A stretch of DNA of 62,522 nt, filler included, from Thermodesulfobacteriota bacterium (GCA_036381125.1; 6 parts of 6 records of this genome joined end to end with filler, not necessarily neighbours in it), one strand, 5' to 3'. Positions 1-22,590 are shown, counted from the whole stretch's first letter. Made by a program: numbers and translations. The notes: generated by a model from the letters alone, not told the origin.

Positions 1-28
1 GCCATCAGCGGTCTTCAGTGCGGCGCGG

Positions 29-706
29 ATGGAGCGTCAGGTGCGGTTTGCGACCGCCGTCGCGCTGACGCGCACCGCCTACCGGGCGCAAGAGCAGGCG
101 AAGCTCGAGATGCAGCGGATCTTCGATCGGCCGACGCCGTTCACCCTCAACGCACTCCGCGTGACGCCGGCGCGCAAGGATCGCCTCGTCGCCGAGGTCG
201 GGTTCCGCGAGTTCGCGGGCAAGGGGACCCCGGCCACCAAGTACCTGCTGCCGCAAGCGACGGGTGGGGCCCGCCCGGTCAAGCGGTTCGAGAAGCGACT
301 GCAATTCGCGGGGCTCCTGCCGCGCGGTCAGGTCCTCGTCCCGGGCGGGGGCGCGCCCCTCGACGCGTTCGGCAACGTGCAGCGCCGCGTCTACTCGCAG
401 ATCCTCTCACAGCTCAAGGCCCAGGCCGACGAGCGCCAGCACGAAACGGCGCGAAGTCGTCGGCGGCACCTGCGTCGGCGCGGTCCGCGATTCGTGTGGA
501 TGAACCCCGGCAACCGTGGCTGGGGCGTCTGGCAGCGCATCGACTTCGCCGTCGGCTCGGCCGTCAAGCCGATCTTCCTCGCGGTCGACAAGGCGAGGTA
601 CGCGGCGCGCTTTCCCTTCCAGGCGATCGTCCTACGCGTGGCGCGCCAAGCCTATGCGCCAGAGTTCGCGCGGGCACTCCGTGACGCACTCAGGACCGCG
701 CGATGA
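29..706 (+). CDS. Phage virion morphogenesis protein (minor tail gpZ / HK97 gp10-like); may be 5'-truncated
   Basis: N-terminal 'QVRFATAVALTRTA...IFDRPTPFTLN' resembles a conserved lambdoid prophage family; lies upstream of the terminase genes. Confidence 0.6.
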   Translation: MERQVRFATAVALTRTAYRAQEQAKLEMQRIFDRPTPFTLNALRVTPARKDRLVAEVGFREFAGKGTPATKYLLPQATGGARPVKRFEKRLQFAGLLPRGQVLVPGGGAPLDAFGNVQRRVYSQILSQLKAQADERQHETARSRRRHLRRRGPRFVWMNPGNRGWGVWQRIDFAVGSAVKPIFLAVDKARYAARFPFQAIVLRVARQAYAPEFARALRDALRTAR

Positions 707-749
707 TGCCTCGCGACGCGATAGGCGGACCCCATACCCCCACCGTCGC

Positions 750-790
750 GGGTCCTTCCCGCGCCCCGTGGGCGCGGGTGATTCGGACCC
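750..790 (+). promoter_or_regulatory. Putative cos-like packaging site (cosQ-like GGGTCCT plus dyad symmetry)
   Basis: GGGTCCT at 750-756 matches lambda cosQ; nested inverted repeats GGGTCC/GGACCC and CCCGCGCCC/GGGCGCGGG; non-coding gap upstream of terS/terL. Confidence 0.5.
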
Positions 791-840
791 CGATGCTCGG
801 CTAGGGCGAGCCGGCCCGAAATGTGGTCAGGAGGTGCAGC

Positions 841-1062
841 ATGAGCGACACGATCTGGCTCGCCGGCCGCATGCTCACCGGCCAGCCCTGGGAGATCCTC
901 GGCGTCTACGCGACCGAGGCGGAGGCGGTCGCGCGGTGCCGTCGGTGGGAGGACTTCGTTGGGCCCCTCACGCTCGGCGTCGACTTGCCCGAGGAGACCG
1001 CCCCGTGGTCCGGCTGCTACTACCCACAGGCGCGCGCCGCCCTCGAGGGCCGCGAGCCATGA
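841..1062 (+). CDS. Small phage hypothetical protein
   Basis: Strong RBS AGGAGGT at 829-835; ATGA overlap with the next gene. Confidence 0.7.
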   Translation: MSDTIWLAGRMLTGQPWEILGVYATEAEAVARCRRWEDFVGPLTLGVDLPEETAPWSGCYYPQARAALEGREP

Positions 1063-1208
1063 CCGCCCTCTACGTCGCCCTTGCGGTCTTCCTCGGCTGC
1101 TTGGTCCGGTTCTGGTGGCGCGAGGACGCACGCCTCGTCGCCGGCCTCAATGCAGCGGCGGCCATCCTGGCCGCCGTGCGGGCGGTCGAGTCCGCCCTCG
1201 CGAGGTAA
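1059..1208 (+). CDS. Small two-helix membrane protein (49 aa)
   Basis: MTALYVALAVFLGCLVRFWW...AAAAILAAVRAV has two hydrophobic stretches; ATGA-coupled to the upstream gene. Confidence 0.6.
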   Translation: MTALYVALAVFLGCLVRFWWREDARLVAGLNAAAAILAAVRAVESALAR

Positions 1209-1213
1209 CGCCC

Positions 1214-1765
1214 CTGCCGCGCCAAGCCGCCCCGCTCCCGACCCCGCTGAGCCTCCGCGCGTTCGCGCGCACGCTCGGCGTCGCGCTCTCCGCGGTCCAG
1301 CGCGCCATCACCGACGGTCGGATTCCATCGGCCCGGAAGGTCGCCGGCCGGTGGACCATCCCCGACGCCGACCAGGCGCGGGCCGAGTGGGCGGCGCTCT
1401 CGCGGCCGTACGTGAGCGCCGTCTCGCGGAAGCGGCTCCCGGACGAGGCGGCGCCACCGCCAGGCAAGCGGACGAGCAAGGCGTCGCGCCTCACGTTGGC
1501 CGAGGCGACCCGGCGGGAGCGGGAGGCGCGGGCGAAGCTCGCGGAGCTCGAGTACCGGAAGCGCAGCGGCCTCCTCATCCCGACCGCCGAGGCCGAGGCG
1601 ACCTATAGCGCGCAGATCATCCGGGCGCGGACGAAGCTCCTCGCCATCCCGTCGCAGCTCAAGCGCCGCCGGCCCCACCTCACGCCCGAGGACCTGGCCG
1701 ACCTCGACGCGCTGATCCGCGAGGCGCTCACGGAGCTCGCGACCGCGGCGGAGGACGTCGCATGA
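1214..1765 (+). CDS. Terminase small subunit (Nu1-like); probable CTG start
   Basis: N-terminal wHTH 'LSLRAFARTLGVALSAVQRAI', coiled coil 'AKLAELEY..RSGLLIP...RTKLLAIP'; ATGA overlap with terL; GAGGT precedes CTG at 1214. Confidence 0.8.
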   Translation: MPRQAAPLPTPLSLRAFARTLGVALSAVQRAITDGRIPSARKVAGRWTIPDADQARAEWAALSRPYVSAVSRKRLPDEAAPPPGKRTSKASRLTLAEATRREREARAKLAELEYRKRSGLLIPTAEAEATYSAQIIRARTKLLAIPSQLKRRRPHLTPEDLADLDALIREALTELATAAEDVA

Positions 1766-3726
1766 GGCCTGCCACCTTCGGCGCCCGCCTCGCCCGCCAC
1801 TGGGCGCCGCCGCCGCGGCTCTCGCTCGCCGAGTGGGCCGATCGGCACTACGTGCTCCCCGAGGGCGACGCCGCCGCGGGCCGGTGGCGCTGCTACCCCT
1901 ACCAGCGCGGCATCCTCGACGCGATGAGCGACCCGACGATCGAACAGGTCTGGGTCATGAAGTCGGCGCGCGTCGGCTTCACCAAGATGTTCGTCGCGGC
2001 GACCTGCTACTACATCGACCACGATCCCTGCCCGATCCTGATCGTGCAGCCCGCGGTCGAGGATGCCGAGGGGCACAGCAAGGAGGACCTGGCACCCGTC
2101 CTCGAGGCGATCCCGTCGATCGCCGCCAAGATCCGCGAGCCGCGCGCCAAAGACTCGGGCAACACGATCTTGCACAAGGTCTTCCCGGGCGGCTCGCTCT
2201 CGCTCGTCGGCGCCAACAGCCCCCGCGGCTTCCGGCGCGTCTCGCGGCGCGTCGTGATCTTCGATGAGGTCGACGAGTATCCCGCGTCCTCCGGTGCCCA
2301 GGGCGACCCGATCATGCTCGGCATCCGGCGCACGCAGTCCTACTGGGACCGGAAGATCATCGGCGGCTCGACCCCGACCGTGAAGGGCCACTCGAAGATC
2401 GAGCAGCTCTTCCTCGCGGGCGACCAGCGGCGCCGCTATCTCCCGTGTCCCTCGTGCGGGCACATGGCGCCGCTGGTCTTCCGTGAAGCCGAGGGGCGCG
2501 GCCACTGGCTGCGCTGGCCGGAGGGGCGACCCCACGAGGCCCACTTCGTCTGCCGCGCGAAGGGCTGCGTGATCGAGCCCCGCCACTACCCCGCGATGGA
2601 CGCGGCCGGCGAGTGGCGCGCCGAGGCGCCCGAGCACTTCACGCCCACCCATCGCGTCGCGAGCTTCCACCTCTGGGCGGCCTACTCGTACCTGCCCAAC
2701 GCCACGTGGGGCCACCTCGCCGCGGAGTTCGTCGCGGCACAGGCGGCCGGCCGCGAGGCGCTCCAGACGTTCGTCAACACCGTCCTCGGCGAGACGTGGC
2801 ACGACCGCGGCGAAGCGCCCGAGTGGGAACGGCTCTACGAACGGCGCGGCCCCTACCGGTCGGGGACGATCCCTCCGGGCGGGCTCCTCCTCACGGCTGG
2901 GGTCGACGTCCAGAAGGATCGCCTCGTCGTCGACGTGACGGCCTGGGGGCGCGGCAAGCGCTCGTGGCTCGTCGATTACGTCGTGATCCCGGGCTCCGTC
3001 GCCGACCGCTCGCCGGCCGGGCCCTGGGTCCGGCTCGACGCGCTCCTCGCGCGGCCGTATCGCCACGCGTCGGGCGTCGAGCTGCCGATTGCGGTCCTCG
3101 CCATCGATGCCGGCGCCTTCACCGAGGAGGTCAAGGCGTGGGCGCGCGGGCATCCGGCGGTGCGCGTCCTGCCCGTCAAGGGGCAGGCCGGGCCCGGCCC
3201 CATCCTCGGCGCGCCGACGACGGTCGACGTGACGATCGGCGGGCGCAAGCTCAAGCGCGGCATGAAACTCTGGCCGGTGTACGGCCACACCGCGAAGGTG
3301 GAGCTGTATGGGTGGTTGCGGCTGCCGGGGCCGACGGACGAGAACCCTGAGCCGCCGCCCGGCTACTGTCACTTCCCCGTCGACCTCGAGGCGGCCTACT
3401 TCAAGCAGCTGACCGGCGAACAGCTCGTGCCGCGACGCAACAAGCGGGGCTACGTCGTGCAGGAGTGGAACGTGATCCCGGGTCGCGAGAATCACGCGCT
3501 CGACGCGCGCGTCTACTGTCGCGCCGCCGCCGCCGCGGCCGGGCTCGATCGGTTCACCGACGCGGACTGGCGCCGGCTCGAGGCGGCGGTCGGCATCACC
3601 CTGCCGCCGCCGGCCCCGCCGGCGAGTCCGCCGCCGCCCGTCACTCCGCCGCCACCTCCGCCCGCGCGCCGGAGCCTCGATGAGGTCTTCGCGCGGGCGC
3701 GCGAGCGCCTTCGGGGGCGACGATGA
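1762..3726 (+). CDS. Terminase large subunit, lambda gpA family
   Basis: 'MKSARVGFT' Walker A-like, 'VIFDEVD' Walker B, 'STPT', CPSCG zinc ribbon, 'AGVDVQ' nuclease, 'NHALDARVY'. Confidence 0.95.
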   Translation: MRPATFGARLARHWAPPPRLSLAEWADRHYVLPEGDAAAGRWRCYPYQRGILDAMSDPTIEQVWVMKSARVGFTKMFVAATCYYIDHDPCPILIVQPAVEDAEGHSKEDLAPVLEAIPSIAAKIREPRAKDSGNTILHKVFPGGSLSLVGANSPRGFRRVSRRVVIFDEVDEYPASSGAQGDPIMLGIRRTQSYWDRKIIGGSTPTVKGHSKIEQLFLAGDQRRRYLPCPSCGHMAPLVFREAEGRGHWLRWPEGRPHEAHFVCRAKGCVIEPRHYPAMDAAGEWRAEAPEHFTPTHRVASFHLWAAYSYLPNATWGHLAAEFVAAQAAGREALQTFVNTVLGETWHDRGEAPEWERLYERRGPYRSGTIPPGGLLLTAGVDVQKDRLVVDVTAWGRGKRSWLVDYVVIPGSVADRSPAGPWVRLDALLARPYRHASGVELPIAVLAIDAGAFTEEVKAWARGHPAVRVLPVKGQAGPGPILGAPTTVDVTIGGRKLKRGMKLWPVYGHTAKVELYGWLRLPGPTDENPEPPPGYCHFPVDLEAAYFKQLTGEQLVPRRNKRGYVVQEWNVIPGRENHALDARVYCRAAAAAAGLDRFTDADWRRLEAAVGITLPPPAPPASPPPPVTPPPPPPARRSLDEVFARARERLRGRR

Positions 3727-3983
3727 GGCGGTCGCCGAAGCCCCGGCCCCTCACGGCCAAGCAGGCTGAGATCGACCGACTGATCCGCGCGCACTACGCG
3801 ACCTTCGGCGAGGGCCCCTCGATCGCCCTCCTGCAGCGGCGCCTGAAGGTCGGGAAGACCGCGCTTCGCTCGCACCTGGCGGCGCTCGTCTCGAAGGGCC
3901 GGCTCGTCTCCGTCTACTCGCCGCTCACGCCCCGCCTGTCCGAGCACGAGCGCCAGTTTGGGGGCGGTCAGTTTCGACCGTAG
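3723..3983 (+). CDS. Stand-alone LexA-type winged-helix DNA-binding protein (HTH-1)
   Basis: 'LTAKQAEIDRLIRAHYATFGEGPSIALLQRRL...TALRSHLAALVSKG' follows the LexA N-domain pattern; no peptidase domain; ATGA overlap with terL. Confidence 0.75.
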   Translation: MRRSPKPRPLTAKQAEIDRLIRAHYATFGEGPSIALLQRRLKVGKTALRSHLAALVSKGRLVSVYSPLTPRLSEHERQFGGGQFRP

Positions 3984-4016
3984 TCGCGCCGCCTCGGCCG
4001 CGCGACACTCGCGGCC
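3969..4016 (+). promoter_or_regulatory. Putative phage late promoter, copy 1
   Basis: CAGTTTCGACCGTAGT-N19-GACACT-CGCGGCC just before the gpW ATG; repeated with identical spacing at 6101-6148. Confidence 0.65.
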
Positions 4017-4019
4017 ACG

Positions 4020-4226
4020 ATGGCGTGGACGCAAGCCGACATCGAGGCCCTCGAGGCGGCGATCGCGAGTGGAGTCCTGACGGTCCGGGCGCCGGACGGC
4101 CGGACCGTCACGTACCAATCCACCGAGGCGATGCTGCAGGCGCTCGCCATGATGAAGCGCGAGCTCGCCGAGGCGAGCGGCGCGACGCCGCGCTACCAGC
4201 GCGTCGCGACCTCCAAGGGCGTCTAG
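4020..4226 (+). CDS. Head-tail joining protein, gpW-like
   Basis: 'MAWTQADIEALEAAIASGVLTV...GRTVTYQS' is typical of gpW-like proteins; lies between terL and portal. Confidence 0.85.
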   Translation: MAWTQADIEALEAAIASGVLTVRAPDGRTVTYQSTEAMLQALAMMKRELAEASGATPRYQRVATSKGV

Positions 4227-4227
4227 C

Positions 4228-5850
4228 GTGTGGCACTGGGTCGACCGCCTCACGATCGGCCTCTTCCCGCGCGCCACGCTCCGGCGCCTCCAGGCGCGCG
4301 CCGCCGCCGAGTTCCTGCTCCGCCACTACGATGCCGCCGCCGGGACCCGCCGGACCTCCGGCTGGCCGCGCGTCCACGGCGACGCGAACGCCGTCATCGC
4401 CCCGGCGCTCGCGACGGTCCGCGCGCACACCCGCGACCTCGTCCGCAACAACCGCTGGGCGCAGAAGGCGTACCGGGCCATCGGCAACAAGGGGGTCGGC
4501 TGGGGCATCACGGCGAAGCCGGTGACGCCGCCTGGCCTCAGGCTGCCGGCCCCGACGCTCGCGGAGGCCGCGGCGCGCTGGACTGCCTGGGCCGAGACGA
4601 CGGCCTGCGACGCCGCGGGGCGCCATACGTTCTACGGCCTCCAGAAGCAGGCGCTGCGCACCATCGCGCAGGACGGCGAGGTCCTCGTCCGACGCCGCTT
4701 CCGCCGGCTCGAGGACGGGCTCCCGATCCCGCTCCAGCTCCAGGTCCTCGAAGCCGATCACCTCGACACGGCCCGCGACGGCGTGACGGCCGGCGGGAAC
4801 GTCGTCGTCCAGGGCGTCGAGTTCGACGCGATCGGCCGGCGCGTCGCCTACTGGCTCTACCCCGAGCACCCGGGCGCGTCGTTCCGCGTCGTGAGCCGCG
4901 TCGTCGGGACCTCGCGCCGCGTGCCCGCGACGGAGGTGCTCCACCTCTACCGCGCGGACCGGCCGGGGCAGGTCCGCGGCATCTCGTGGTTTGCGCCCTG
5001 TGTGCTGACGCTCAAGGACGAGGACGAGTACGAGGACGCGGTGCTGGTCCGCCAGCGGATCGCCGCGATGCTGACGGCCTTCCGCGTGAGCCTGGACGGC
5101 GTCGCGCAGCCGGGCTCGCTGGGGCCCGAGAAGACCGTGACACGCGGTGACGGCGCGAGCGAGAGCGCCGACCTCCTCGAGCCGGGCACCATTCTGAATC
5201 TCACGCCCGGCGAAGACATCAAGTTCGTGACGCCGCCCGCGACGACCGACCACCCGACCTACCTGACGACCGTCCTGCGCGGCATCGCGGCTGGCTGCGA
5301 CGTGAGCTACGAGGTCCTGACGGGCGACTACAGCCAGGTCAACTTCTCGTCGGCGCGCATGTCCCGGCTCGACCTCCAAGACGCGGTCCACGAATGGCGG
5401 TGGGATCTCCTGATCCCGCACCTCTGTGACCCCGTGTGGGGCTGGGCGATGGAGGCGCTCGAGCTCACGGGCGCCATCCGGGGCCGACCCATGGCCGCCT
5501 GGACGGCACCGCCGCTGCCGATGATCGAGCCCGACAAGGAGGGCCTCGCCTACAAGCGCCTCATCCGCTCGGGCCTCATCACGTGGGCCGAGGCGGTGCG
5601 CGAGCGCGGCTACGATCCCGAGACGCTCATCGAGGAGATCGCCGCCTGGAACCGCCGCTTCGACGCCGCGGGCATCGTCCTCGACAGCGATCCGCGCAAG
5701 ACCTCGGACGCCGGCCTCACGCAGGCCCGCCCGCCCGGGACCGTCGTGCCCGATCCCTCCAAGGTCGGCGATGGCGGCGGCCAGGAGGACGCCGACGACG
5801 AGGACGAGGAGGCCGGCCGCGGTCTCCCCAACGGACACGCTCGCGCATGA
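4228..5850 (+). CDS. Phage portal protein, lambda family
   Basis: 'RDLVRNN', 'DGEVLVRR', 'LQLQVLEADHL', 'GVEFDAIGRRVAYW', 'RPGQVRG', 'GDYSQVNFSSAR'. Confidence 0.95.
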   Translation: MWHWVDRLTIGLFPRATLRRLQARAAAEFLLRHYDAAAGTRRTSGWPRVHGDANAVIAPALATVRAHTRDLVRNNRWAQKAYRAIGNKGVGWGITAKPVTPPGLRLPAPTLAEAAARWTAWAETTACDAAGRHTFYGLQKQALRTIAQDGEVLVRRRFRRLEDGLPIPLQLQVLEADHLDTARDGVTAGGNVVVQGVEFDAIGRRVAYWLYPEHPGASFRVVSRVVGTSRRVPATEVLHLYRADRPGQVRGISWFAPCVLTLKDEDEYEDAVLVRQRIAAMLTAFRVSLDGVAQPGSLGPEKTVTRGDGASESADLLEPGTILNLTPGEDIKFVTPPATTDHPTYLTTVLRGIAAGCDVSYEVLTGDYSQVNFSSARMSRLDLQDAVHEWRWDLLIPHLCDPVWGWAMEALELTGAIRGRPMAAWTAPPLPMIEPDKEGLAYKRLIRSGLITWAEAVRERGYDPETLIEEIAAWNRRFDAAGIVLDSDPRKTSDAGLTQARPPGTVVPDPSKVGDGGGQEDADDEDEEAGRGLPNGHARA

Positions 5851-6059
5851 TCGAGAGCAACACCCTCACCAACCGCGCCGTCACGGCGCTCACCGATCGC
5901 CAGGCCGAGATCGCGCGACTCATCGAGACGCACGTCGCCCTCTGGGGCGAGGCGCCGCCGACCGGCCTCCTTGCCCGCCGCCTCGGCCTGCACCGCCACA
6001 CGGTGCGACGCCACCTCGCGAGCCTCGCCCGCAAGCGCCCGCCCAACCGCCCCGCCTGA
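5847..6059 (+). CDS. Second stand-alone LexA-type HTH protein (HTH-2, 70 aa)
   Basis: 'LTDRQAEIARLIETHVALWGEAPPTGLLARRLGLHRHTVRRHLASL' is paralogous to 3723-3983; ATGA overlap with the portal stop. Confidence 0.7.
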   Translation: MIESNTLTNRAVTALTDRQAEIARLIETHVALWGEAPPTGLLARRLGLHRHTVRRHLASLARKRPPNRPA

Positions 6060-6100
6060 CGCCGCGACACTTTCGGGCCGTCCCGATCTGTCAGGGGCTC

Positions 6101-6148
6101 CACTTTCGGCCGTAGTTTCCGAGCGCGCGCTGCCGCACGCTCGCGGCC
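6101..6148 (+). promoter_or_regulatory. Putative phage late promoter, copy 2
   Basis: CACTTTCGGCCGTAGT-N19-CACGCT-CGCGGCC immediately before GTG 6149; extra partial box at 6068-6081. Confidence 0.65.
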
Positions 6149-8251
6149 GTGAGGATGACGACGCACACCGTCGACCTGCCGCCGCTCAGCGTGCGCGCGA
6201 CGGTGCGGCCCGAGAGCATCAACGCGGAGGCTCGGACCGTCGAGGTCACGCTCGCGGCCGGGTCCCCTGTCGTCCGGTACGACTGGATGACCGGCCAGCG
6301 GTACGTCGAGACCCTCGCGATGGACCGCAAGGCCGTCCGCCTCGAGCGGCTCAACAACGGCGCCCCCCTCCTGAACGCCCACTCTGCCCTCGACGTGGCC
6401 GACGTGATCGGCGTGATCGAGCCCGGCTCCGCGCGGATCGAGTCGGGCGAGCTGCGCGCCCGCGTCCGCTTCTCGAAGCGTGACGACCGGACCGAGGGGA
6501 TCTGGCGCGACGTGCAGGACGGCATCCTCCGCAACCTCTCGGTCGGCTACCGCGTCCACAAGTACGAGGAAACGACCGGCAGCGACGGGACGCTCCCGAC
6601 GCGCCACGCCATCGACTGGGAGCCCTATGAGGGCTCGCTGGTCCCGATGGGCGCCGACGACCGCGCGAAGGTTCGGGCTGACCGGCGCGTCGAGATGAAT
6701 CCCTGCGAGATCGTCAGCCGGGCGCTGCCCGACGAGGAGGCCACGACGATGCCCACCGCCGAGAAGCTGGCCGAGGCGAAGGCCAAGGCCGAGACGGCCG
6801 CCACGCGCGCGGCCGAGGACGCCGAGCCGGCGACCAACGGGGCGGCGCCCGACGCCGAGGCCATCCGACGCGCCGAGGCCGCGGAGACCGCGCGAGCCGC
6901 TGCGCTCATGGATCTCCAGGCCAACGCGACCGTCGCAGCCGCCGGCTTCGACGCGACCTTCTTCCGGACACACCTCGAGAAGAAGACGCCGCTCGACGTG
7001 GTGCGCAAGCTGATCTTCGACAAGCTGACCGCCCAGAGCGACGCCACGGCCGGCGCGAGCCACGTCCGCATCGAGGGCGGCGAGGACGCGCGCGACAAGT
7101 GGCAGCGGGGCGTCCAGGCGTGGCTGATCCAGAAGGCCGCCGTCGGCGACGTGCTCGCGCAGGCGAAGGCCAAGCGGCCGGACCACCCGGCGTTCCGCGA
7201 CGCGCTGGCCGACCCGGGGGAGTTCCGCGGCCTCTCGCTCGTCGACCTCGCGCGCGACTGCCTCGAGGCGGCCGGCATCCGGACGCGCGGCCTCGACAAG
7301 ATGGCGCTGGTCGGCAAGGCCCTGACCCTCCGGAGCGCGGGCTACCAGACGACCAGCGACTTCGCCGTCGCCCTCGAGAACGTCCTGCATAAGACGCTGC
7401 TGGCCGCCTACACGGTCGCGCCCGACACGTGGCGGCGGTTCTGCGCGGTCGGCTCGGTGAGCGACTTCCGGCCGCACGCCCGTTACCGGACCGGCTTCCT
7501 CGGCCGGCTCGAGGTCGTGCGCGAGCACGGCGAGTTCCGCAACAAGGCGATCCCCGACGCCGTCAAGGAGTCGATCAGCGCCGACACGAAGGGCAACATC
7601 CTCGCGCTCTCGCGTCAGGCGATCATCAACGACGACATGGGGATCTTCTCGCGGATCGCGACGCAGGCGGGGCGCATGGTCGCGCTCTCGATCGAGCTCG
7701 ACGTGTACGACCTCCTCAAGCTCAACGCCGGCCTCGGGCCGACGATGAACGACGGCCAGACGCTCTTTCACGCGAGCCACGGGAACATCAACGCGACCGG
7801 CTCGGCGCTGAGCGTCGCGGGGCTCGATGCCGACCGCGTCGTCATGGCGACGCAGACGGACCCGTCGGGCAACGAGACGCTCGACCTGCGGCCCGCGATC
7901 CTGCTGGTCCCGATCGGCCTCGGCGGCGAGGCGCGCGTCATCAACGATGCGCAGTTCGACGTCGACACGGTTTCCGGCGGGCAGACCAACAAGTTCATGA
8001 AGCCCAACAAGGTCCGCGGCCTCTTCCGCGACATCGTCGACACGCCGCACCTCTCGGGCACCCGCCGCTACCTCTTCGCCGATCCGGCCCTCATGCCGGT
8101 CCTCGAGGTCGTGTTCCTCGAAGGGCAGCAGGAGCCGTTCCTCGAGACCCGCGACGGCTGGCGGATCGACGGCGTCGAGTGGAAGATCCGCCACGACTAC
8201 GGCGTCGGCGCCATCGAGGTGCGCGGCGCGGTGACCAACGCCGGCGCGTAA
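6149..8251 (+). CDS. Prohead protease / major capsid protein fusion
   Basis: N-terminal 'GAPLLNAH...DGILRNLSVGY...DWEPYEGSLVPMGAD' HK97-type protease; Ala-rich scaffold linker; C-terminal 'TTSDF...SDFR...LSRQAIINDD...LFHASHGN' capsid. Confidence 0.9.
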   Translation: MRMTTHTVDLPPLSVRATVRPESINAEARTVEVTLAAGSPVVRYDWMTGQRYVETLAMDRKAVRLERLNNGAPLLNAHSALDVADVIGVIEPGSARIESGELRARVRFSKRDDRTEGIWRDVQDGILRNLSVGYRVHKYEETTGSDGTLPTRHAIDWEPYEGSLVPMGADDRAKVRADRRVEMNPCEIVSRALPDEEATTMPTAEKLAEAKAKAETAATRAAEDAEPATNGAAPDAEAIRRAEAAETARAAALMDLQANATVAAAGFDATFFRTHLEKKTPLDVVRKLIFDKLTAQSDATAGASHVRIEGGEDARDKWQRGVQAWLIQKAAVGDVLAQAKAKRPDHPAFRDALADPGEFRGLSLVDLARDCLEAAGIRTRGLDKMALVGKALTLRSAGYQTTSDFAVALENVLHKTLLAAYTVAPDTWRRFCAVGSVSDFRPHARYRTGFLGRLEVVREHGEFRNKAIPDAVKESISADTKGNILALSRQAIINDDMGIFSRIATQAGRMVALSIELDVYDLLKLNAGLGPTMNDGQTLFHASHGNINATGSALSVAGLDADRVVMATQTDPSGNETLDLRPAILLVPIGLGGEARVINDAQFDVDTVSGGQTNKFMKPNKVRGLFRDIVDTPHLSGTRRYLFADPALMPVLEVVFLEGQQEPFLETRDGWRIDGVEWKIRHDYGVGAIEVRGAVTNAGA

Positions 8252-8281
8252 GCGGCGACCGCGGAGAAGGAGAGGACGACG

Positions 8282-8620
8282 ATGGCGAGCAACTACCGGG
8301 GCGAGGGCGACGTGCTGCCGCTCACCGCGCCGATCGGCGGCGTCACGAGCGGGAGCGCCTACCTGATCAGCGGGCTCCTCGTGGTCGCGATGGACACGGC
8401 GGGCCAGGGCCAGCCGTTCAGCGGGAAGACCACGGGACTCTTCGTCCTGCCGAAGGCGACCGGCGAGGCGTGGACCCAGTGCCAGAAGCTCTACTGGGAC
8501 GACACCAACAAGCGGCTCACGACGACCGCCAGCGGCAACACGCTCGTCGGCGTCGCGGCGAAGCCGGCCGGATCGACCGACACGGTCGGCGAGGTCCGCC
8601 TCGACGGCGTCACCCGGTAG
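8282..8620 (+). CDS. DUF2190-family capsid decoration/cement protein
   Basis: 'NYRGEGDVL..TAP.GGVTSG...GLFVLPKA...LYWD'; follows the capsid gene; RBS present. Confidence 0.85.
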   Translation: MASNYRGEGDVLPLTAPIGGVTSGSAYLISGLLVVAMDTAGQGQPFSGKTTGLFVLPKATGEAWTQCQKLYWDDTNKRLTTTASGNTLVGVAAKPAGSTDTVGEVRLDGVTR

Positions 8621-8638
8621 CGCGCGGAGGCGACGGGC

Positions 8639-8959
8639 GTGACGCACGCCGCCGCGCAGCGTGTAGGCGATCGGGCCTTCCTCGCCGTCATGGGCGAGCC
8701 GGTCGTCTACTGGGCGAGCTATGGCGAGCCGACGACCGTCACGGCCTACTTCGAGTCTCCATACAACCGCGTCGAGGTCGGCGAGGCGGGCGTGCAGAGC
8801 GCGGCCCCGGCCGTCTGGGTCCGGCTCGCCGACCTCCCGACCGATCCAGAGGCCGACCAGCGAGGCGCGCGGATCGAGCGCGCCGGCCTGGTCTACCGGA
8901 TCGCGGAGGTCGAGAAGGACGGCGTGGGTGGCGTCCGGCTCCGCCTCCATCGGGCGTAG
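8639..8959 (+). CDS. Head-tail adaptor / closure protein (FII-like)
   Basis: About 106 aa ending 'YRIAEVEKDGVGGVRLRL'; synteny. Confidence 0.75.
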   Translation: MTHAAAQRVGDRAFLAVMGEPVVYWASYGEPTTVTAYFESPYNRVEVGEAGVQSAAPAVWVRLADLPTDPEADQRGARIERAGLVYRIAEVEKDGVGGVRLRLHRA

Positions 8960-8962
8960 CCG

Positions 8963-9403
8963 ATGGCCCATCAGCGCGCCGCCATCCGGGCGGCCGTGAT
9001 GGCGGCCCTGAACGGCAAGACGACGGCCGAGGGCCGCGTGTACGAGCACGCGCTCGACCCGCTGCCGAGCGAGGCGCGACCGGCCCTCGTGGTGCGGACG
9101 GGCGACGAGACAGCGGAGCCGCTGGCGATGGGCCGCGACCTGCGGACCATCCCGCTCGCGATCGAAGCCCACGCGCGCGGCAAGACACCGGCCGCGCTCG
9201 AGGCCGCGCTCGACGCGCTGGCCGAGGAGGTCGAGACCGCGATGGACGCGCTCGGCCCCACGTTCGACGGGCTCGTCCTGGGCGTCCAGTACCAGGGCAC
9301 GTCGATCACGCGGAGCGCCGAGGGCGAGCAGGGCGCCGACGGGGTCGCGACGCTCGGCTACGAGGTGCAGTACGAGGCCCGGGCCTTCGGCGTCCCGGCG
9401 TAA
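8963..9403 (+). CDS. Tail terminator / completion protein (gpU-like)
   Basis: 'HQRAAIRAAV.AAL...RVY...P..PAL.V...LDALAEEVETAM'; synteny. Confidence 0.7.
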   Translation: MAHQRAAIRAAVMAALNGKTTAEGRVYEHALDPLPSEARPALVVRTGDETAEPLAMGRDLRTIPLAIEAHARGKTPAALEAALDALAEEVETAMDALGPTFDGLVLGVQYQGTSITRSAEGEQGADGVATLGYEVQYEARAFGVPA

Positions 9404-9415
9404 GGAGCCGACACG

Positions 9416-10132
9416 ATGGCGATTCGTGCGACTGGTCAGCGGATCCTCGTCGAGCAGTACGAGATCTCCCGATGGGTCCGGACCCAGCGGTTCACGGAGT
9501 CGATCGCCGAGCACGACGTGACGGGGATGAACCAGCTCGCGCGCGAGTTCGTGCCGGGTTTCCCGGATGCGGGCGGCGAGCTGAGCGGCCACCTGGACCA
9601 CGCCATCAACGCCAGCGGCTCGACCCTCAAGGGGATGCTCGGGACGCCGGATCGCATCTGGACGGTCGCGTACGATACCTTCGCGCCCGGGAAGGACGTG
9701 GACATGGCGCTCGCGGCCCTCACGGCGTTCCGGCCGTCATGGAGCGTCCAGGCGCCGGCCGGCCTCGCCGGGTCGCTCATCGTCAACGGCGCCATCGCGG
9801 GCGGGCGAAGCCTCCAGGACCTGCAGGCGCTCGGCGCCGGCAACGGCGCGTGGGTCGACTGGGGGGCGTCGTCGACGAACGGCGCCGTCCTGCATCTGCA
9901 CGTCCTCGCCATCACCGGCAGCCCGAGCGGCCTCGACTACGTCCTCGAAGACTCGGACGACGGCGTGAACGGCTCGCCCGTCACCGCCGGCGCCTTCGCG
10001 ACCGTCACGGCGCCCGGCGCGCAGCGGCTCATCGTGCCAGGCACGATCCGCCGCTACACGCGGATCGTCCGGAGTTTCACCGGCGGGTCCACGCCGACCG
10101 CGACGGCCGCCATCGCGATGGCGCGTCGATAG
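9416..10132 (+). CDS. Tail tube-like protein with C-terminal beta-rich extension
   Basis: N-terminal half resembles the next gene (E.hDxT...PG...G..D); position after the terminator. Confidence 0.55.
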   Translation: MAIRATGQRILVEQYEISRWVRTQRFTESIAEHDVTGMNQLAREFVPGFPDAGGELSGHLDHAINASGSTLKGMLGTPDRIWTVAYDTFAPGKDVDMALAALTAFRPSWSVQAPAGLAGSLIVNGAIAGGRSLQDLQALGAGNGAWVDWGASSTNGAVLHLHVLAITGSPSGLDYVLEDSDDGVNGSPVTAGAFATVTAPGAQRLIVPGTIRRYTRIVRSFTGGSTPTATAAIAMARR

Positions 10133-10141
10133 GGGGATCGG

Positions 10142-10573
10142 ATGGCGAAGTACTTTCCTGGACCGCTCCTCGCGGTCGTCCTCGACGACGACAGCGGCAC
10201 GCCCGTCGACGTCTCGCGGTACGTCCGCTCGGTCGACCTGCCCGAGGAGGTCGAGCAGCTCGACGCGACCGCCTTCCAGGCGACGGGCCTCGAGCGCCAG
10301 CCCGGCTTCTCGTCCGGACAGATCGTGCTCGGCGGCAACTGGGATCCCGTCCTCTTCCGCCTCCTCCACGGCATCAAGCGGAAGCAGGCAGCGGATCCCG
10401 GTTTCACCGTGACGTACGCGGTCGGGCCCGAGGGGACGACGCCCGGGAAGGTCAAGTACACGGGCGAGTGCATCCTGAGCCAGTTCGACCGCGGCGGCGA
10501 CGTCGGTGCCACGACCGACATCAGCGCGACCTTCCGGATCACCGGCGACAACACCGAGACGACCTGGTCGTAA
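10142..10573 (+). CDS. Phage tail tube (major tail) protein
   Basis: 'DVSRYVRSVDL...EQLDATAF...KYTGECIL...SATFRITG'; directly upstream of the tail chaperones. Confidence 0.75.
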   Translation: MAKYFPGPLLAVVLDDDSGTPVDVSRYVRSVDLPEEVEQLDATAFQATGLERQPGFSSGQIVLGGNWDPVLFRLLHGIKRKQAADPGFTVTYAVGPEGTTPGKVKYTGECILSQFDRGGDVGATTDISATFRITGDNTETTWS

Positions 10574-10583
10574 CGAGGAGGTC

Positions 10584-11012
10584 ATGCCCCTTCCGACTCG
10601 CGAACAGCTCTACGCGCTCGGCCCGCGCATCACGACCATCACGATCCCAGAGTGGACGGGCCCGGACGGTCAGCCCGTCGAGATGCGCGTCAAGGCGGCG
10701 CCGCCGGGCCTCAAGGTCCGGATGCGCGCCTTCGGCGTCATGTGCGCGCTCGGCAAGACCGAGAACCTCGAGGCGTTCGAGGATCTCTACGTCGACGTCG
10801 CGATCGCGTGCTGCGTCACGCACGACGGTTCGCCGTTCTTCATCGAGGAGAACCGCGCCTGGCTCCGTGCTGCGGATGGCGCGGCGCTCGAACGGATCTT
10901 CGACGCGGCCGGCGCCATCGCGATGACGGATGCGGCGGCGGTGGAGGCCGCCAAGCAGGATTTTTCCGGGACCCGGAGCTCGGCTACCTCTTCGCCCTCG
11001 CCGAGCGTCTAG
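10584..11012 (+). CDS. Tail assembly chaperone (gpG-like)
   Basis: RBS GAGGAGG; 'ITIPEW.G..V.MRVK'; lies between tail tube and tape measure genes. Confidence 0.8.
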   Translation: MPLPTREQLYALGPRITTITIPEWTGPDGQPVEMRVKAAPPGLKVRMRAFGVMCALGKTENLEAFEDLYVDVAIACCVTHDGSPFFIEENRAWLRAADGAALERIFDAAGAIAMTDAAAVEAAKQDFSGTRSSATSSPSPSV

Positions 11013-11143
11013 GGAAGACGGTCGGGGAGCTGACCGGGCGCCCCGGGCCTCTCGACGCCGAAGAGTTCCTCTACTGGATGGCCTTCGACGCCTGGCGCGA
11101 TGCCCGACGCGCTGAGGCCGAGGCGGAGCGGGAGCGGTGCTAG
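10958..11143 (+). CDS. gpT-like extension reached by programmed -1 frameshift (gpGT)
   Basis: G GAT TTT at 10958-10964; the -1 frame reads 'FRDPELGYLFALAERLGKTVGEL...EF.YWMAF' and stops adjacent to the tape measure start. Confidence 0.8.
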   Translation, partial: GFFRDPELGYLFALAERLGKTVGELTGRPGPLDAEEFLYWMAFDAWRDARRAEAEAERERC

Positions 11144-13885
11144 GTGGCGGACGAAGTCCTCAGAGCACGCTTCGAAGCCGATAACTCGGGCTTCATCCGC
11201 GCCGTCGCGCAGAACGAGCAGGCTGCGCGCCGCCTCGAAGCCGTGACGGGCGCGACGGCCCAGCAGGCCCGCAATCTTGAGAAGGCAACTGGCGGCGCGG
11301 CGACCCGCCTGCAGGCGGTGGCGCGTCAGGCCGCGAACGCCATTCCGTCGCTGACGGGCTTCGGTGGCAGCCTCTCCCAGATCGTCGGCATTGCGACGCG
11401 GTTCGGTCCGGCCGCGCTCCTCGCAGGCGGGCTCTTCGCCACCCTCCGGACCGGCGAGCCGGCGCTGCGGGAGACGGAGCGCGCCATGCGCTCGGTCGCC
11501 GTGAGCCTCTCTGGGATCGGGGTCAACTTCCGCGGTGTCGAGGAGCAGGTCGAGCAGACGATCGGACGGCTCGAGCGGCTGACCGGCGTCTCGGACGCGG
11601 AGCTCGCCCGCGCGTTCTCGCGCCTCGTGCAGATCACCGGCACGTACCGGACGAGTCTCGATGCGCTCGAAACGGTCGCTGATCTCGCCGCCGCGCGGCA
11701 GATGAGCCTCCGCGAGGCGGCCGAAGTCGTCGGCCGCGCGCTGAACGGTCAGGCCGGGAGCCTCCGACAGTATGCGATCACGGTCCGCGAGGGCGCGAGC
11801 CAGGCGGAAGTCCTGGCGGCCATCCAGAAGCAGGTCGGCGGGCAGGCGCGGGTGAATGTCGAGGCGGCCGACCGACTCACGATCGCGTGGGAAAACTTCG
11901 CAAAGTCCATCGCGTCGAAGGTCAAACCGGCGTGGGATGCGCTCCGCGAGGCGATGGCGGCCGTCCTCGAGTCCGTGACCGAAACGCAGACCGGCGTCGA
12001 GGAGGCGATGCAAGCCGCCGAGGCGGCGGTCGCGGCGCAGCTGGCCGGTCAGGCGGCCGGTATCCGTGATCCGGCTGGCGCCCAGCGGTTCGCCGAACAG
12101 TTGCGGCACGCGCGCGCCGCGGCCCGTGCGGAAGCCGCCGAGCTCTTCCGCGAGGGCCGGCGTGGCGTTGTGACTGGCGAGATCCAGGCCGCCGTCGCCG
12201 CCGACACACAGGGCGCCAGGCGCGCCGCACAGATCTTCGCCGACATGGAAGCGGCGATGGCGCGCGCGGCCCGGCAGGCGAGCTTCCTTGGGACCTCGGC
12301 CCGGGACGTGACGCAGCTCCGCCTGCAGGGCGAGATCGAGGCGGTCGAGTCGGCGCTCAAGCAGTTCGCCGAGCAGGGTGTCGCGCGCATGAACCCGCTC
12401 GTCGTCGAGGCGACGGAGCGGCTCAAGGACCTCCGGGCGGCGCTCGAAGCCGTCAAGCGCGAGGCGAAGGACATCCAGTCCATCGAGCCGCGGTTCGACC
12501 AGTTCGTGACCGAACGGACGTTCGAGACGCGCGCGCTCGTCGAGCGGCGCGCGGCCGGTCAGGCCATGATCGACGCCGTCTTCGCCGAGATGGCCGAGCA
12601 GCAGCTCGAGCTCGACGAGCAGGGCGCGCGCGCCTGGGCCGACCTGATGGACCGGAAGGCACAGGAGGCCGAACGCGCGGCCGAGCGGATCACGCGCGCG
12701 AACGAGCGCGCGGCGACGCAGACCCAGCGCGAGTGGGAGCGGACCGGCGACCGTGTCCTCGACGTCTTCGAGACGATCGCGCGTGGCGGCTCGCCGGGCG
12801 AGGCGCTGCGTGGCGCCGGCTTCTCGTTCGCGAGCGAGCTCCTGCGCGAGCAGGTCCGGGCCGTGCTCGCGCGTCGCGCAGGGGTCTCGGTCCCGACGGG
12901 CGGCGGCCTCAACCTCGGGAGCCTCCTCAACCTCGGCGGCCTCTTCGGCGGCGGCGGCGCGGTGCCGACGGCCCAGGCCGCGCTCCCGAACGCGGGGATC
13001 GAGTTGGGTGCCGGCCTCCAGGGCGCCGGCGGCGCGGCGGCGGGCGGCCTCGCGAGCCTCGGGCCGGCGCTGGCCGTGGCGGCGCCGCTCGTGATCGGCG
13101 GGGCCGCGATCGGGCTCTCGCGGTCTCGTCGCGCTCGGCGGCGCGCCCAGATCGAGGCGCTCCGGCAGGAGTTCGCCCCCTTCGCGCAGGCGGCGCGCGC
13201 GATCGCCGAGCAGGGACTCGTGACGCTGACGGGCGCCGCGGCCTCCGCCGTCGCGTTTATCGAGCACATCCGGAGCCTCGGCGACCGGGCCGGTGCCGAG
13301 AGCGCCAAGCAGTTCCTCGAGCGCTGGCGCCGCATTGCCGAGCCGCTCTCGCAGTCCGTGCAGGGCGGCCTCGCCGAGGGCATCCGGGCCTTCCTGAATC
13401 GTGAGGGCAACATGCTGCGGCGCCTCCGCGAGGGCGTGCGGAGCGCGATCGTCGACGCCTTCACGCAGGCGACGATCCAGGGCACGGTCGTGCGCGGCGC
13501 GTTCGGCGATCTCCTCGGCCGGCTCTCGGAGGGGCTCGCCCGCGGCCAGGACGTGACGGGTCTGATCCCGCAGATCGCCGCCATTCTCCCGGCCCTGGCG
13601 CAGCAGCTCGAGGCGGTCCTCGCGCCGCTCCGGACGGCGCTCGAGCGGGCGCTGCCGCGTGGCTCCTTCCAGACCGGGACGGCCTTCGTTCCCGAGACGG
13701 GGCCCTACATCCTCCACCGGGGCGAGGCTGTGATTCCGGCGGGTGCGCGGCCGGCCGGCGGGCCGGTCCATGTCCATGTCCACGTCGGCGAGACGGAGGT
13801 CGCGCAGGTGGTCTTCGACCGGCTCCTTGACCGCGTCGTGGAGGCGTTCCCGCTGCGGGCGCGCTTCCGGTACGGGATGGGGTAG
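11144..13885 (+). CDS. Tail tape measure protein (913 aa)
   Basis: Long Ala/Gly-rich helical protein after the chaperones; C-terminal 'FQTGT.FVP.TG...LHRGEAVIP'. Confidence 0.9.
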   Translation: MADEVLRARFEADNSGFIRAVAQNEQAARRLEAVTGATAQQARNLEKATGGAATRLQAVARQAANAIPSLTGFGGSLSQIVGIATRFGPAALLAGGLFATLRTGEPALRETERAMRSVAVSLSGIGVNFRGVEEQVEQTIGRLERLTGVSDAELARAFSRLVQITGTYRTSLDALETVADLAAARQMSLREAAEVVGRALNGQAGSLRQYAITVREGASQAEVLAAIQKQVGGQARVNVEAADRLTIAWENFAKSIASKVKPAWDALREAMAAVLESVTETQTGVEEAMQAAEAAVAAQLAGQAAGIRDPAGAQRFAEQLRHARAAARAEAAELFREGRRGVVTGEIQAAVAADTQGARRAAQIFADMEAAMARAARQASFLGTSARDVTQLRLQGEIEAVESALKQFAEQGVARMNPLVVEATERLKDLRAALEAVKREAKDIQSIEPRFDQFVTERTFETRALVERRAAGQAMIDAVFAEMAEQQLELDEQGARAWADLMDRKAQEAERAAERITRANERAATQTQREWERTGDRVLDVFETIARGGSPGEALRGAGFSFASELLREQVRAVLARRAGVSVPTGGGLNLGSLLNLGGLFGGGGAVPTAQAALPNAGIELGAGLQGAGGAAAGGLASLGPALAVAAPLVIGGAAIGLSRSRRARRRAQIEALRQEFAPFAQAARAIAEQGLVTLTGAAASAVAFIEHIRSLGDRAGAESAKQFLERWRRIAEPLSQSVQGGLAEGIRAFLNREGNMLRRLREGVRSAIVDAFTQATIQGTVVRGAFGDLLGRLSEGLARGQDVTGLIPQIAAILPALAQQLEAVLAPLRTALERALPRGSFQTGTAFVPETGPYILHRGEAVIPAGARPAGGPVHVHVHVGETEVAQVVFDRLLDRVVEAFPLRARFRYGMG

Positions 13886-13888
13886 GCG

Positions 13889-14124
13889 ATGCCCGACCTG
13901 ATCGATCGGACCACGAACACGGGCCTCAGCACGCTCGCCAGTGGCATCGACGCCTCGGCGGCGACCATGACGCTCGCGTCCGGAACCGGCTCGCGCTTCC
14001 CGTCCGGCGGCTTCAACGTCGTCATCTGGGACAACACGCCAACCGCCGGCTACGCGAACCCGATCGATGACCCGAATCGCGAGATCGTGCGGGTCACGAG
14101 CCGGACCGGCGACGTCTGCACGAT
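13889..14124 (+). CDS. Virion structural/tail protein, 3'-truncated by contig end
   Basis: 'TLASGIDASAATMTLASG.GSRFP...NREIVRVTSR.GD' is typical of tail-associated protein N-termini. Confidence 0.6.
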
Positions 14125-14224
14125 NNNNNNNNNNNNNNNNNNNNNNNNNNNNNNNNNNNNNNNNNNNNTTAATTAATTAANNNNNNNNNNNNNNNNNNNN
14201 NNNNNNNNNNNNNNNNNNNNNNNN
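14125..14224. other. Artificial contig linker
   Basis: 100 nt of N with TTAATTAATTAA (stops in six frames). Confidence 0.99.
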
Positions 14225-14226
14225 GG

Positions 14227-20412: not shown

Positions 20413-21189
20413 TTACGTGGTCGCCTCGGCCGGTCGGATCAGACCAGCCTTGAGCTTCTCCTTTAGTCGATACGAGTTGCCGCGGATGCTGATGGTGGTC
20501 GCGTGGTGGAGGACCCGGTCGAGGATCGCCGCGGCGATGACGCGATCCCCGAAGACCTCCGCCCAGTTGCCGAAACTCTGGTTGCTGGTCAGGATCATCG
20601 GCCCCCGCTCGTAGCGGCGGGTGATGAGCTGGAAGACGAGGTTCGCCCCCACCCGGTCGATCGGCAGGTAGCCGATCTCGTCGATGATCAAGAGGCGAGG
20701 GACGGTGTAGACCTTGAGCTTCTCCTCGAGGCGCCCTTCGCTGAGCGCGCGCGTCAGGGTCGCGATGAGCGTGGCGGCCGTGGTGAAGAGGACGCGGTAG
20801 CCCCGCTCGATCGCCTTCAGCCCCAAGCCGACGGCCAGATGCGTCTTGCCCACGCCCGGGGGCCCGAGCACGACGAGGTTGTCGCCGTGCTCGACGAAGT
20901 GGCAGCTGGCCAGCTGCTCGATCTGTTTCTTGTCGATCGAGGGTTGGTAGGTGAAGTCGAAGGCGTCGAGCCCTTTGACGAAGGGGAAGCGCGCCAGGTG
21001 TGTCCGCATAGTGACGTGCTTGGCGGTTTTGGAGGTCACCTCCTCGGTGAGCAGCCGGTCGAGGAAGTCGGCGTAGGGGAGCTCCTGGTCGGCGGCCTCC
21101 TGGAGCAGTGCCTCGAGCCGCTCGCGGCTCTTGATGAGGTGCAACCGCTGGAGCTGGCCCTGAAGACGTTCGAGCTGGGCGGGCGTCAT
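20413..21189 (-). CDS. istB: IS21 helper ATPase
   Basis: '[11 protein letters not shown]' Walker A, 'LLIIDEIGY' Walker B, 'ILDRVLHH', 'GNSYRL'. Confidence 0.96.
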
Positions 21190-22508: not shown

Positions 22509-22590
22509 CGCGCAGTCTCCTCAGGTGAGGCGCGGCTGGGGAGTTTTCGCTGCCCCCACCCGAGGAGATTTGCATGCCCAGTAACAGGTC

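Follow-up and report, generated by a model that had tools for sequence, protein, structure and literature searches.

A duplicated accessory cassette with a stand-alone LexA-type DNA-binding gene and a candidate restart element at two head-gene junctions of a lambda-type phage block

Internal late promoters whose –35 element is poor or missing serve blocks of head genes in phages Mu (activators C and Mor) and P2/P4 (Ogr and Delta), and in Mu one such activator-dependent promoter precedes the protease/scaffold gene. Morons are extra genes found in lambdoid and SPP1-like phages; classical ones carry their own promoter and terminator. Here we describe an arrangement that is a variation on both themes, the accessory gene at a head-module junction and the late regulator of a phage, in a stretch of 62,522 nucleotides (nt) from a Thermodesulfobacteriota bacterium (GCA_036381125.1; six records joined end to end with filler), referred to at its full length as the window. 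From position 1 to ~13.9 kb, the plus strand of the window carries a lambda-type head and tail gene block with the order terS, terL (gpA type), HTH1, gpW-type adaptor, lambda-family portal, HTH2 and protease-capsid fusion. HTH1 and HTH2 are small genes for helix-turn-helix (HTH) proteins resembling the LexA N-domain, and each is associated with a copy of a 48-nt bipartite motif (the box) whose first half begins CASTTTCG and whose second, start-proximal half reads SACRCT followed by CGCGGCC. Our preferred explanation, to which we give a tentative probability of about 0.4, is that HTH1 and HTH2 belong to two accessory cassettes that may each end in a restart element, preferably a weak internal promoter, for gpW and protease-capsid expression.

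This locus departs from its closest described counterparts in several respects. The Mu and P2 activators come from other families and from genes elsewhere in the genome, and their transcription starts have been mapped, whereas here the putative regulator gene is duplicated, abuts its putative target and is known from sequence. Like morons, the cassettes place extra genes between conserved head genes that relatives lack (79 of 80 related loci are without the family, and the junctions are mostly tight). Unlike classical morons, each cassette gene is joined by an ATGA overlap to the late gene before it, and the inserts form a paralogous pair with a common 3' adaptor. A scan of window positions 1–12000 for sigma-70 consensus promoters and U-tract hairpins found no moron-type promoter or terminator at the cassettes; the sole terminator-like site in that region is on the minus strand, at 6999–6986, away from both. 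The encoded proteins are like the LexA N-domain (PF01726) and stand-alone phage LexA-domain proteins in sequence and modelled fold. LexA also has an S24 peptidase/dimerisation domain; HTH1 and HTH2 have no such domain, so RecA-triggered self-cleavage is not expected of them. Their recognition helices differ from that of Escherichia coli LexA, and HTH2 is in addition wingless.

Phage SPP1 offers a further comparison. According to PMC6316719, ORFs (open reading frames) 3–5 and 8–10 of SPP1 break the usual head-gene order, and its gp7, encoded after the portal gene, binds DNA and is targeted to the procapsid through the portal. The likeness to gp7 and to MuF proteins is that the HTH2 gene lies directly 3' of the portal gene and shares with its counterparts a constant, possibly targeting, part joined to a variable cargo. 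Unlike gp7/MuF, HTH2 has no MuF domain, the constant part is a peptide of ~12 residues and virion association is putative.

An earlier note on this DNA, made from the sequence alone, had proposed that the two small genes are paralogous, that each is ATGA-coupled to the end of a structural gene and that both lack the C-terminal peptidase of LexA. We confirmed each of these points. HTH1 and HTH2 share 25 of 49 aligned residues (51%; E 2e-14) and begin at overlaps with the terL and portal stops (Table 1). In Pfam, LexA_DNA_bind scored 29.4 bits for HTH1 and 32.2 bits for HTH2 against a gathering cut-off of 23.7; weak HTH families were the only other matches, with neither a Peptidase_S24 nor a MuF (Phage_Mu_F) domain in either protein. 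The NCBIfam lexA model (TIGR00498), whose cut-off is 110.95 bits, reached 24.4 and 25.0 bits and covered the N-domain alone, which sets both proteins apart from the LexA repressor proper. By sequence, HTH1 matches 1lea, a solved structure of the DNA-binding domain of LexA (E 0.002), and its AlphaFold model (predicted local distance difference test score, pLDDT, 88.7) consists of three helices and a short strand pair, the wing. The HTH2 model (pLDDT 78.2) has three helices, no wing and disordered residues 1–11; it superposes on the LexA N-domains 3jso, 1jhh and 1lea with a TMq (template-modelling score) of 0.67–0.70, a root-mean-square deviation of 0.6–1.0 Å and 41% identity, and its best match in the PDB is 3jso (TMq 0.67, 41% identity). 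We considered the possibility that HTH2 is a plain pseudogene and did not accept it; short wingless family members that stop just past helix 3 exist naturally.

A HMMER profile of the two proteins matched 146 cluster representatives at E ≤0.001 (5 of them at ≤1e-10), which are mostly stand-alone proteins of 62–100 aa, a few having two domains per chain. The ESM Atlas likewise holds many mostly viral clusters of 68–89 aa named LexA DNA-binding-domain proteins. Judged by these clusters, the stand-alone LexA-domain gene is a common type in phages. Translated searches (tblastn) of HTH1 and HTH2 against 50,697 phage records gave zero matches, and a word-index search returned the query itself as its sole match. 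Two other family members were compared with the phages: P0020 gave 6 weak matches, one of them in a podovirus beside a methyltransferase gene, and P0006 gave none. Our literature searches on LexA-domain proteins in head modules found nothing relevant.

We next turn to the box, which the earlier note had described as a conserved motif that follows each HTH gene. With up to 3 mismatches allowed, the 48-nt pattern matches the two box sites alone in the window, and none of 100 shuffles gave two matches. The part of the description that does not stand is the position of box 1, which overlaps HTH1: the first 15 nt of the box comprise the final four HTH1 codons (QFRP) and the TAG stop. In cassette 2 the first-half letters begin 42 nt beyond the HTH2 stop, and the same TAG lies 54 nt beyond it, in the –1 frame – a frame that is open through the whole HTH2 gene and ends at that TAG. 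The first half is the informative part, with a 13-mer that has two exact matches. CASTTTCG occurs at 3 sites in the window, all inside the cassettes, though at least 3 sites are also found in 17 of 100 shuffles. The second half alone is undistinctive in this DNA of 73% GC, giving, with up to one mismatch allowed, 9 matches where 5.6 would be expected.

Nor is the motif an isolated patch of similarity. Starting at the LTPR codons of HTH1 and running to the last base of the box, the two cassettes align over 93 nt without a gap, at the identity of the coding core: 33/60 (55%) in the tail, 19/33 (58%) after the stop and 86/147 (59%) in the HTH core. The tail identity exceeds that of random 60-mers (P 0.00035) and falls as 0.75, 0.50 and 0.40 over the three codon positions of the frame ending at TAG, the only frame in which the GC content of cassette 2 by codon position is coding-like. 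Between the core and tail alignments, the cassettes differ in length by 7 nt. Because the tail homology is ungapped, of core-like identity and offset from the core by just these 7 nt, the sequences indicate that the two cassettes are copies of a single unit, in which the HTH core is followed by the C-terminal tail, the stop and 33 nt that abut the next start codon, and that the box, on this alignment, is the best-kept patches of its tail.

Two observations on the cassette ends may be added. Imperfect direct repeats of the sequence immediately 5' of the start codon flank both cassettes, 3706–3725 with 4003–4022 and 5830–5846 with 6130–6146, at 10/17 identical positions each; the repeat at cassette 2 contains the 10-nt exact match CACGCTCGCG. 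Such repeats could be a trace of cassette insertion, with a background P of ~0.02 that weakens when offsets are allowed. By reading only, the core-site-like ends that an integron attC-like interpretation of the bipartite palindrome calls for were not seen.

To place the cassettes among related head modules, we used a portal-alignment scan that gave 80 loci with 36–53% portal identity; a scan of genome contigs with the portal alone returned nothing. The order terL, gpW, portal, protease-capsid, decoration is retained in most of these loci. The terL–gpW gap is 0–31 nt in 25 of 72 measured loci, and the protease-capsid gene starts between –52 and +21 nt from the portal end in 25 of 41. In many relatives it is the gpW or protease-capsid gene itself that begins at an ATGA overlap with the upstream stop; by this comparison, HTH1 and HTH2 have thus taken over the stop/start overlaps at which the displaced genes start elsewhere.

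The LexA-domain family itself is rare at these junctions. The two-sequence profile found it in 0 of 80 loci, and a profile of 109 members found it in one, L002, whose portal identity of 53% is the highest of any locus. In L002 (region 4090–6360) the domain (E 7e-16) falls at the same junction, between portal and protease-capsid; it shares the reading frame of the protease-capsid ORF, no stop separates the two, and it may represent either a fusion protein or an internal start. Opened junctions in the relatives are often occupied by other small DNA-binding genes (Table 1). The small HTH_17 proteins of L004 and L024 matched phage sequences only within the HTH domains of unrelated genes. A third HTH gene of the DnaA domain-IV type, at 5420–5785 of L010, was assigned by its near-identical N-terminus alone; all three genes of this type are from Bacteroidota-type loci.

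The start-proximal half of the box stands at a fixed 7–10 nt from the next start codon in both cassettes, and it recurs in relatives. In 2 of 52 loci with an alignable N-terminus, the window and L001, the hexamer CACNCT lies 7 nt 5' of the protease-capsid start; its frequency is ~0.0007–0.001 per base and strand. By reading, CACACT also lies 6 nt 5' of the GTG start in L004, whose protease is of another type. A relaxed A..CT at 6–7 nt, seen before 2.0% of start codons as background, is present in 4 of the 52 loci, namely the window, L001, L002 and L003. In 9 of the 52, portal and protease-capsid stand ~300 nt or more apart, and all four carriers belong to these 9; the 43 others have none. By our own hypergeometric arithmetic, with patterns widened after seeing the data, this association has a P of ~5e-4, or ~3e-3 without the window. 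Over the 17 nt 5' of the protease-capsid start, window and L001 are identical at 12 positions, a level that 2 of 410 L001 start-codon contexts reach (0.5%). Before gpW the hexamer occurs in the window alone (1 of 56 loci), which fits a copy brought in with the cassette. These patterns suggest that the conserved start-proximal element, tied as it is to inserted small DNA-binding genes, is likely functional.

The 9-mer TTTCGACCG before gpW in L001 is probably a chance match, the degenerate 9-mer occurring 42 times in 31 of 81 loci. The 9-nt core of the box, TTTCGRCCG, shows no preferred placement 5' of gene starts in the loci. In L004, three perfect tandem copies of a 10-nt sequence (7705–7734) lie in the spacer between the HTH_17 and protease genes, 40 nt 5' of the hexamer, and we count them in favour of our preferred explanation. 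Within the window, ACRCTCGCG occurs 9 times against 7.8 expected; 5 of the 9 sites fall within 2.3 kb (4005–6256), all on the plus strand, and three of the clustered sites lie 10–15 nt 5' of starts (gpW, HTH2 and protease-capsid).

In our preferred explanation, two copies of one accessory-gene cassette occupy the terL–gpW and portal–protease-capsid junctions, which are tight in most relatives. Each brings a stand-alone LexA-N-domain-type DNA-binding gene, placed at the stop/start overlap where the displaced gene starts in many relatives, and a 3' adaptor of roughly 35–95 nt that ends at the displaced gene's start codon. Of this, the sequences and models show the paralogy, the fold, the 93-nt tail homology without gaps and the exact places of the cassettes. 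The conserved first half of the box would be mainly retained C-terminal HTH codons and stop, read in cassette 1 and out of frame in cassette 2 through the 7-nt difference. The working part would be the start-proximal half, restarting expression of gpW and protease-capsid – most likely as a weak internal promoter whose mRNA would be leaderless or nearly so – and the adjacent DNA-binding proteins would be its likely regulators, whether by activation or by repression.

The earlier note had gone further and read both boxes as activator-dependent leaderless promoters, with the first half as the activator box. What remains of that proposal is its start-proximal portion: the recurrence of the hexamer in insert-bearing relatives partly supports a restart element, which might be a weak promoter with a near-leaderless transcript, and the geometry is compatible with the sigma-70 type, the TAGT of the first half lying 17 nt 5' of the hexamer. 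An activator box in the first half is not supported, this half being largely explained by coding and common descent: it is coding in cassette 1, diverges codon-wise and did not turn up in the upstream sequence aligned for three relatives (the whole box was searched in no relative).

A number of observations weigh against even the reduced reading. A sigma-70 consensus scan found no consensus promoter in window positions 1–12000 or in L001, L004, L007 and L024; the hexamers match TATAAT at 2–3 of 6 positions (A2, T6 and one extra in some), and no common –35 element appears in the relatives aligned. There is no Shine-Dalgarno core 5' of gpW or protease-capsid in the window. Starts that lack such a core predominate in this phage group (30 of 52 loci), so its absence does not speak for leaderless mRNA. 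Each HTH gene seems to be co-translated with the late gene upstream of it, and expression therefore needs no internal promoter. The widening of the hexamer patterns was post hoc, and L024 has an insert without the hexamer. By our own arithmetic on the two copies only, patches of 14/16 and 11/13 are not very improbable at 58% identity. The 48-nt box precedes no other gene start in the window, including terS and the tail genes. Finally, the best portal homologs are 52–56% identical, with no close phage relative among those searched.

One competing account is passive duplication, in which moron-like accessory genes were copied, the box is residual tail and flank homology without function and the displaced genes are translated from a long late mRNA. 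Tail and post-stop identities that equal that of the coding core fit this account, as do tail differences that fall mostly at third codon positions, a first half that is coding in cassette 1, a second half that is a common GC-rich word and a box that neither appears upstream in three aligned relatives nor, in its core, keeps a start-linked placement; moron genes that break head-gene order are also described for SPP1 in PMC6316719. A non-coding flank would, however, be expected to diverge faster and to gain insertions and deletions, yet the 93 nt are ungapped and end exactly at the start codon, and L001 has the start-proximal element too, while its hexamer is present in L002, L003 and L004. We consider passive duplication unlikely. 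The model of the earlier note in its complete form – two activator-dependent leaderless late promoters and a relay of the two proteins that sets portal versus capsid dosage – draws on the same support as our preferred explanation, and in addition on the 17-nt spacing of TAGT and hexamer and on the second CASTTTCG copies upstream. Coding and descent already account for the first half, a transcript from box 1 would have a leader of 3–4 nt, and neither terS nor the tail genes are preceded by the box; in this complete form we judge the model highly improbable.

Two further readings assign the restart or the proteins a different role. Translationally, the box halves could form a stem-loop reaching from the small-gene stop to the next start, which terminating ribosomes would open before restarting. 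RNAalifold pairs CCGUAGU with ACRCU.CGCGG, all 14 pairs being formed in both copies and 2 being compensatory; single-box folds have z-scores of –2.06 and –2.22, the TAG lies within the 5' arm and neither displaced gene has a Shine-Dalgarno core. The pairing does not exceed the background: the box 1 duplex (–6.5 kcal/mol) is equalled by 40% of shuffles, 47% of window 16-mer/13-mer pairs set 19 nt apart reach –9 kcal/mol or better and 107 of 500 column shuffles equal the structure. Rfam gives no match. Because the HTH2 stop is 89 nt 5' of the start, coupling in cassette 2 would need a –1 frameshift, and by eye positions 6020–6059 contain no X XXY YYZ slippery site; in L001, L004 and L024 the small-gene stop is 60–116 nt from the start. 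Re-coupling of this kind is in our view very unlikely. Alternatively, HTH2 and perhaps HTH1 could be virion-associated proteins rather than transcription factors, docked to the portal or the procapsid interior through a disordered N-terminal peptide in the manner of SPP1 gp7 (portal-directed targeting as described in PMC6316719), with the box a mere junction. This would accommodate the peptide common to four portal-stop-started proteins of three folds, its occurrence in other family members, its modelled disorder and the LexA-type domain in frame with protease-capsid in L002. HTH1 lacks the peptide, however, and neither protein has a MuF/gp7 domain; the peptide could just as well make contact with RNA polymerase or some other partner, and the conserved start-proximal element would be left unexplained. 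We hold virion association to be quite unlikely.

The peptide itself is the most novel lead of the analysis. The pattern MI-x4-L-x-N/D/R/H-R/H-A/V opens the ORF that starts at the portal stop in the window, L001, L004 and L024. Across all loci and the window, 4 of 593 ATGAT[CTA]-started ORFs of at least 45 aa match it, and all four lie directly at the portal stop. Its codons differ among the four carriers, which indicates conservation at the protein level. Among short members of the LexA-domain family, 22 of 109 have the peptide. We rejected the idea that it is a copy of the protease-capsid N-terminus, since a profile of 52 such N-termini gave no meaningful match to the peptide carriers. A complex prediction for portal and HTH2 scored 0.00 with controls not run, and counts neither way. 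The peptide may be a docking or contact tag. In its broadest form, the proposal would be of a recurrent, undescribed post-portal slot in lambda-type head modules of soil and sediment bacteria. A gene starting at the portal stop would join a portable, disordered peptide of ~12 residues to an interchangeable nucleic-acid-binding domain (LexA-type winged helix, HTH_17 or zinc ribbon) and be followed by a spacer with a start-proximal restart element serving protease-capsid; the peptide would serve as a docking or activation tag for portal, procapsid or RNA polymerase, and in the window the cargo domain and restart element would have been copied to terL–gpW. We put this forward as a speculative proposal that is unlikely to hold.

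These readings differ in what they would mean. An internal regulator-dependent promoter, if real, would show how phages of little-studied high-GC bacteria raise capsid output within a single late operon, and would give a first function to the very common stand-alone phage LexA-domain proteins. A portal or procapsid docking tag would be a small portable signal for loading DNA-binding proteins into heads. If the locus has neither, it is an ordinary duplicated accessory gene pair at known insertion hot spots.

Table 1. Features of the head-gene block in the window and small genes at the corresponding junctions of related loci
Feature	Sequence	Position	Strand	Remarks
Small terminase subunit gene (terS)	window	959..1765	+	phrog_57, E 1.4e-23; HTH_17 match weak
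Large terminase gene (terL), lambda gpA type	window	1762..3726	+	GpA_ATPase and GpA_nuclease domains; TGA overlaps HTH1 ATG
HTH1, 86-aa stand-alone LexA-N-domain-type winged helix with family C-terminal wing/tail	window	3723..3983	+	PF01726
Degenerate upstream first-half copy (CAGTTTG...), inside HTH1 coding end	window	3954..3968	+	by sequence reading alone
Box 1: last 4 HTH1 codons and TAG, 19-nt variable spacer, GACACT-CGCGGCC	window	3969..4016	+	ends 3 nt 5' of gpW ATG
gpW-type head-tail adaptor gene, pushed off terL stop by cassette 1	window	4020..4226	+	phrog_2545, E 8e-22, full length; terL–gpW distance mostly 0–20 nt in relatives
Portal gene, lambda family	window	4228..5850	+	PF05136, E 5e-107; TGA overlaps HTH2 ATG
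HTH2, 70-aa LexA-N-domain-type three-helix protein, wingless, N-terminal peptide MIxxxxLxNRAV	window	5847..6059	+	PF01726
N-terminal peptide region of HTH2 (LexA type)	window	5847..5888		
Former coding tail, 60 nt homologous to HTH1 tail	window	6056..6115	+	open in HTH2 –1 frame; same TAG at end
Partial upstream first-half copy CACTTTCGGGCCGT	window	6068..6081	+	33 nt 5' of box 2
Box 2, same bipartite motif as box 1	window	6101..6148	+	ends at protease-capsid GTG
Prohead protease-major capsid fusion gene, pushed off portal stop by cassette 2	window	6149..8251	+	phrog_4523, E 3.6e-183, residues 2–700; Phage_capsid_4
NrdR-like zinc-ribbon gene, 3' of portal	L001	7461..7703		N-terminal peptide carrier
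HTH_17 gene, 3' of portal	L004	7434..7670		N-terminal peptide carrier
HTH_17 gene, 3' of portal	L024	7501..7749		N-terminal peptide carrier
HTH_17 gene, 3' of terL	L007			
DnaA_C-type (domain-IV) HTH gene, between terL and gpW	L009	5409..5774		
DnaA_C-type (domain-IV) HTH gene, between terL and gpW	L022	5414..5752		
Ribbon-helix-helix match, 3' of portal	L003			weak, below cut-off
DUF4177-like protein gene (~60–65 aa), terL–gpW gap	L040, L055, L064, L076			ATGA-coupled to terL; scores just under Pfam cut-off

The gene after box 2, which the earlier note had called capsid, proved to encode a 700-aa protease-capsid fusion. Its start is either the GTG at 6149, which aligns with the ATG start in L001, or the ATG at 6155. 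Genes for a decoration protein, a head-closure protein, a tail terminator, tail tube proteins and a tape measure follow it. An ORF 5' of terS (29–706) matches a PHROG 'minor tail protein'. The phage block stops just past the tape-measure gene, where its neighbour is an Lhr-type helicase gene that starts with DEAD_assoc and lacks the helicase domains (13885–16950), and the ORFs scanned in the window showed none for integration, lysis or replication. These limits may reflect a truncated or rearranged prophage, or an assembly join. Named relatives of QueC, 76–79% identical, come from different phyla. Elsewhere in the window, a Mu-type transposase/integrase-core gene on the minus strand adjoins the gene for a 968-aa RHS-repeat protein (21186–25503), and the minus-strand gene at 59171–60316 is DndB-like (DNA sulfur modification-associated).

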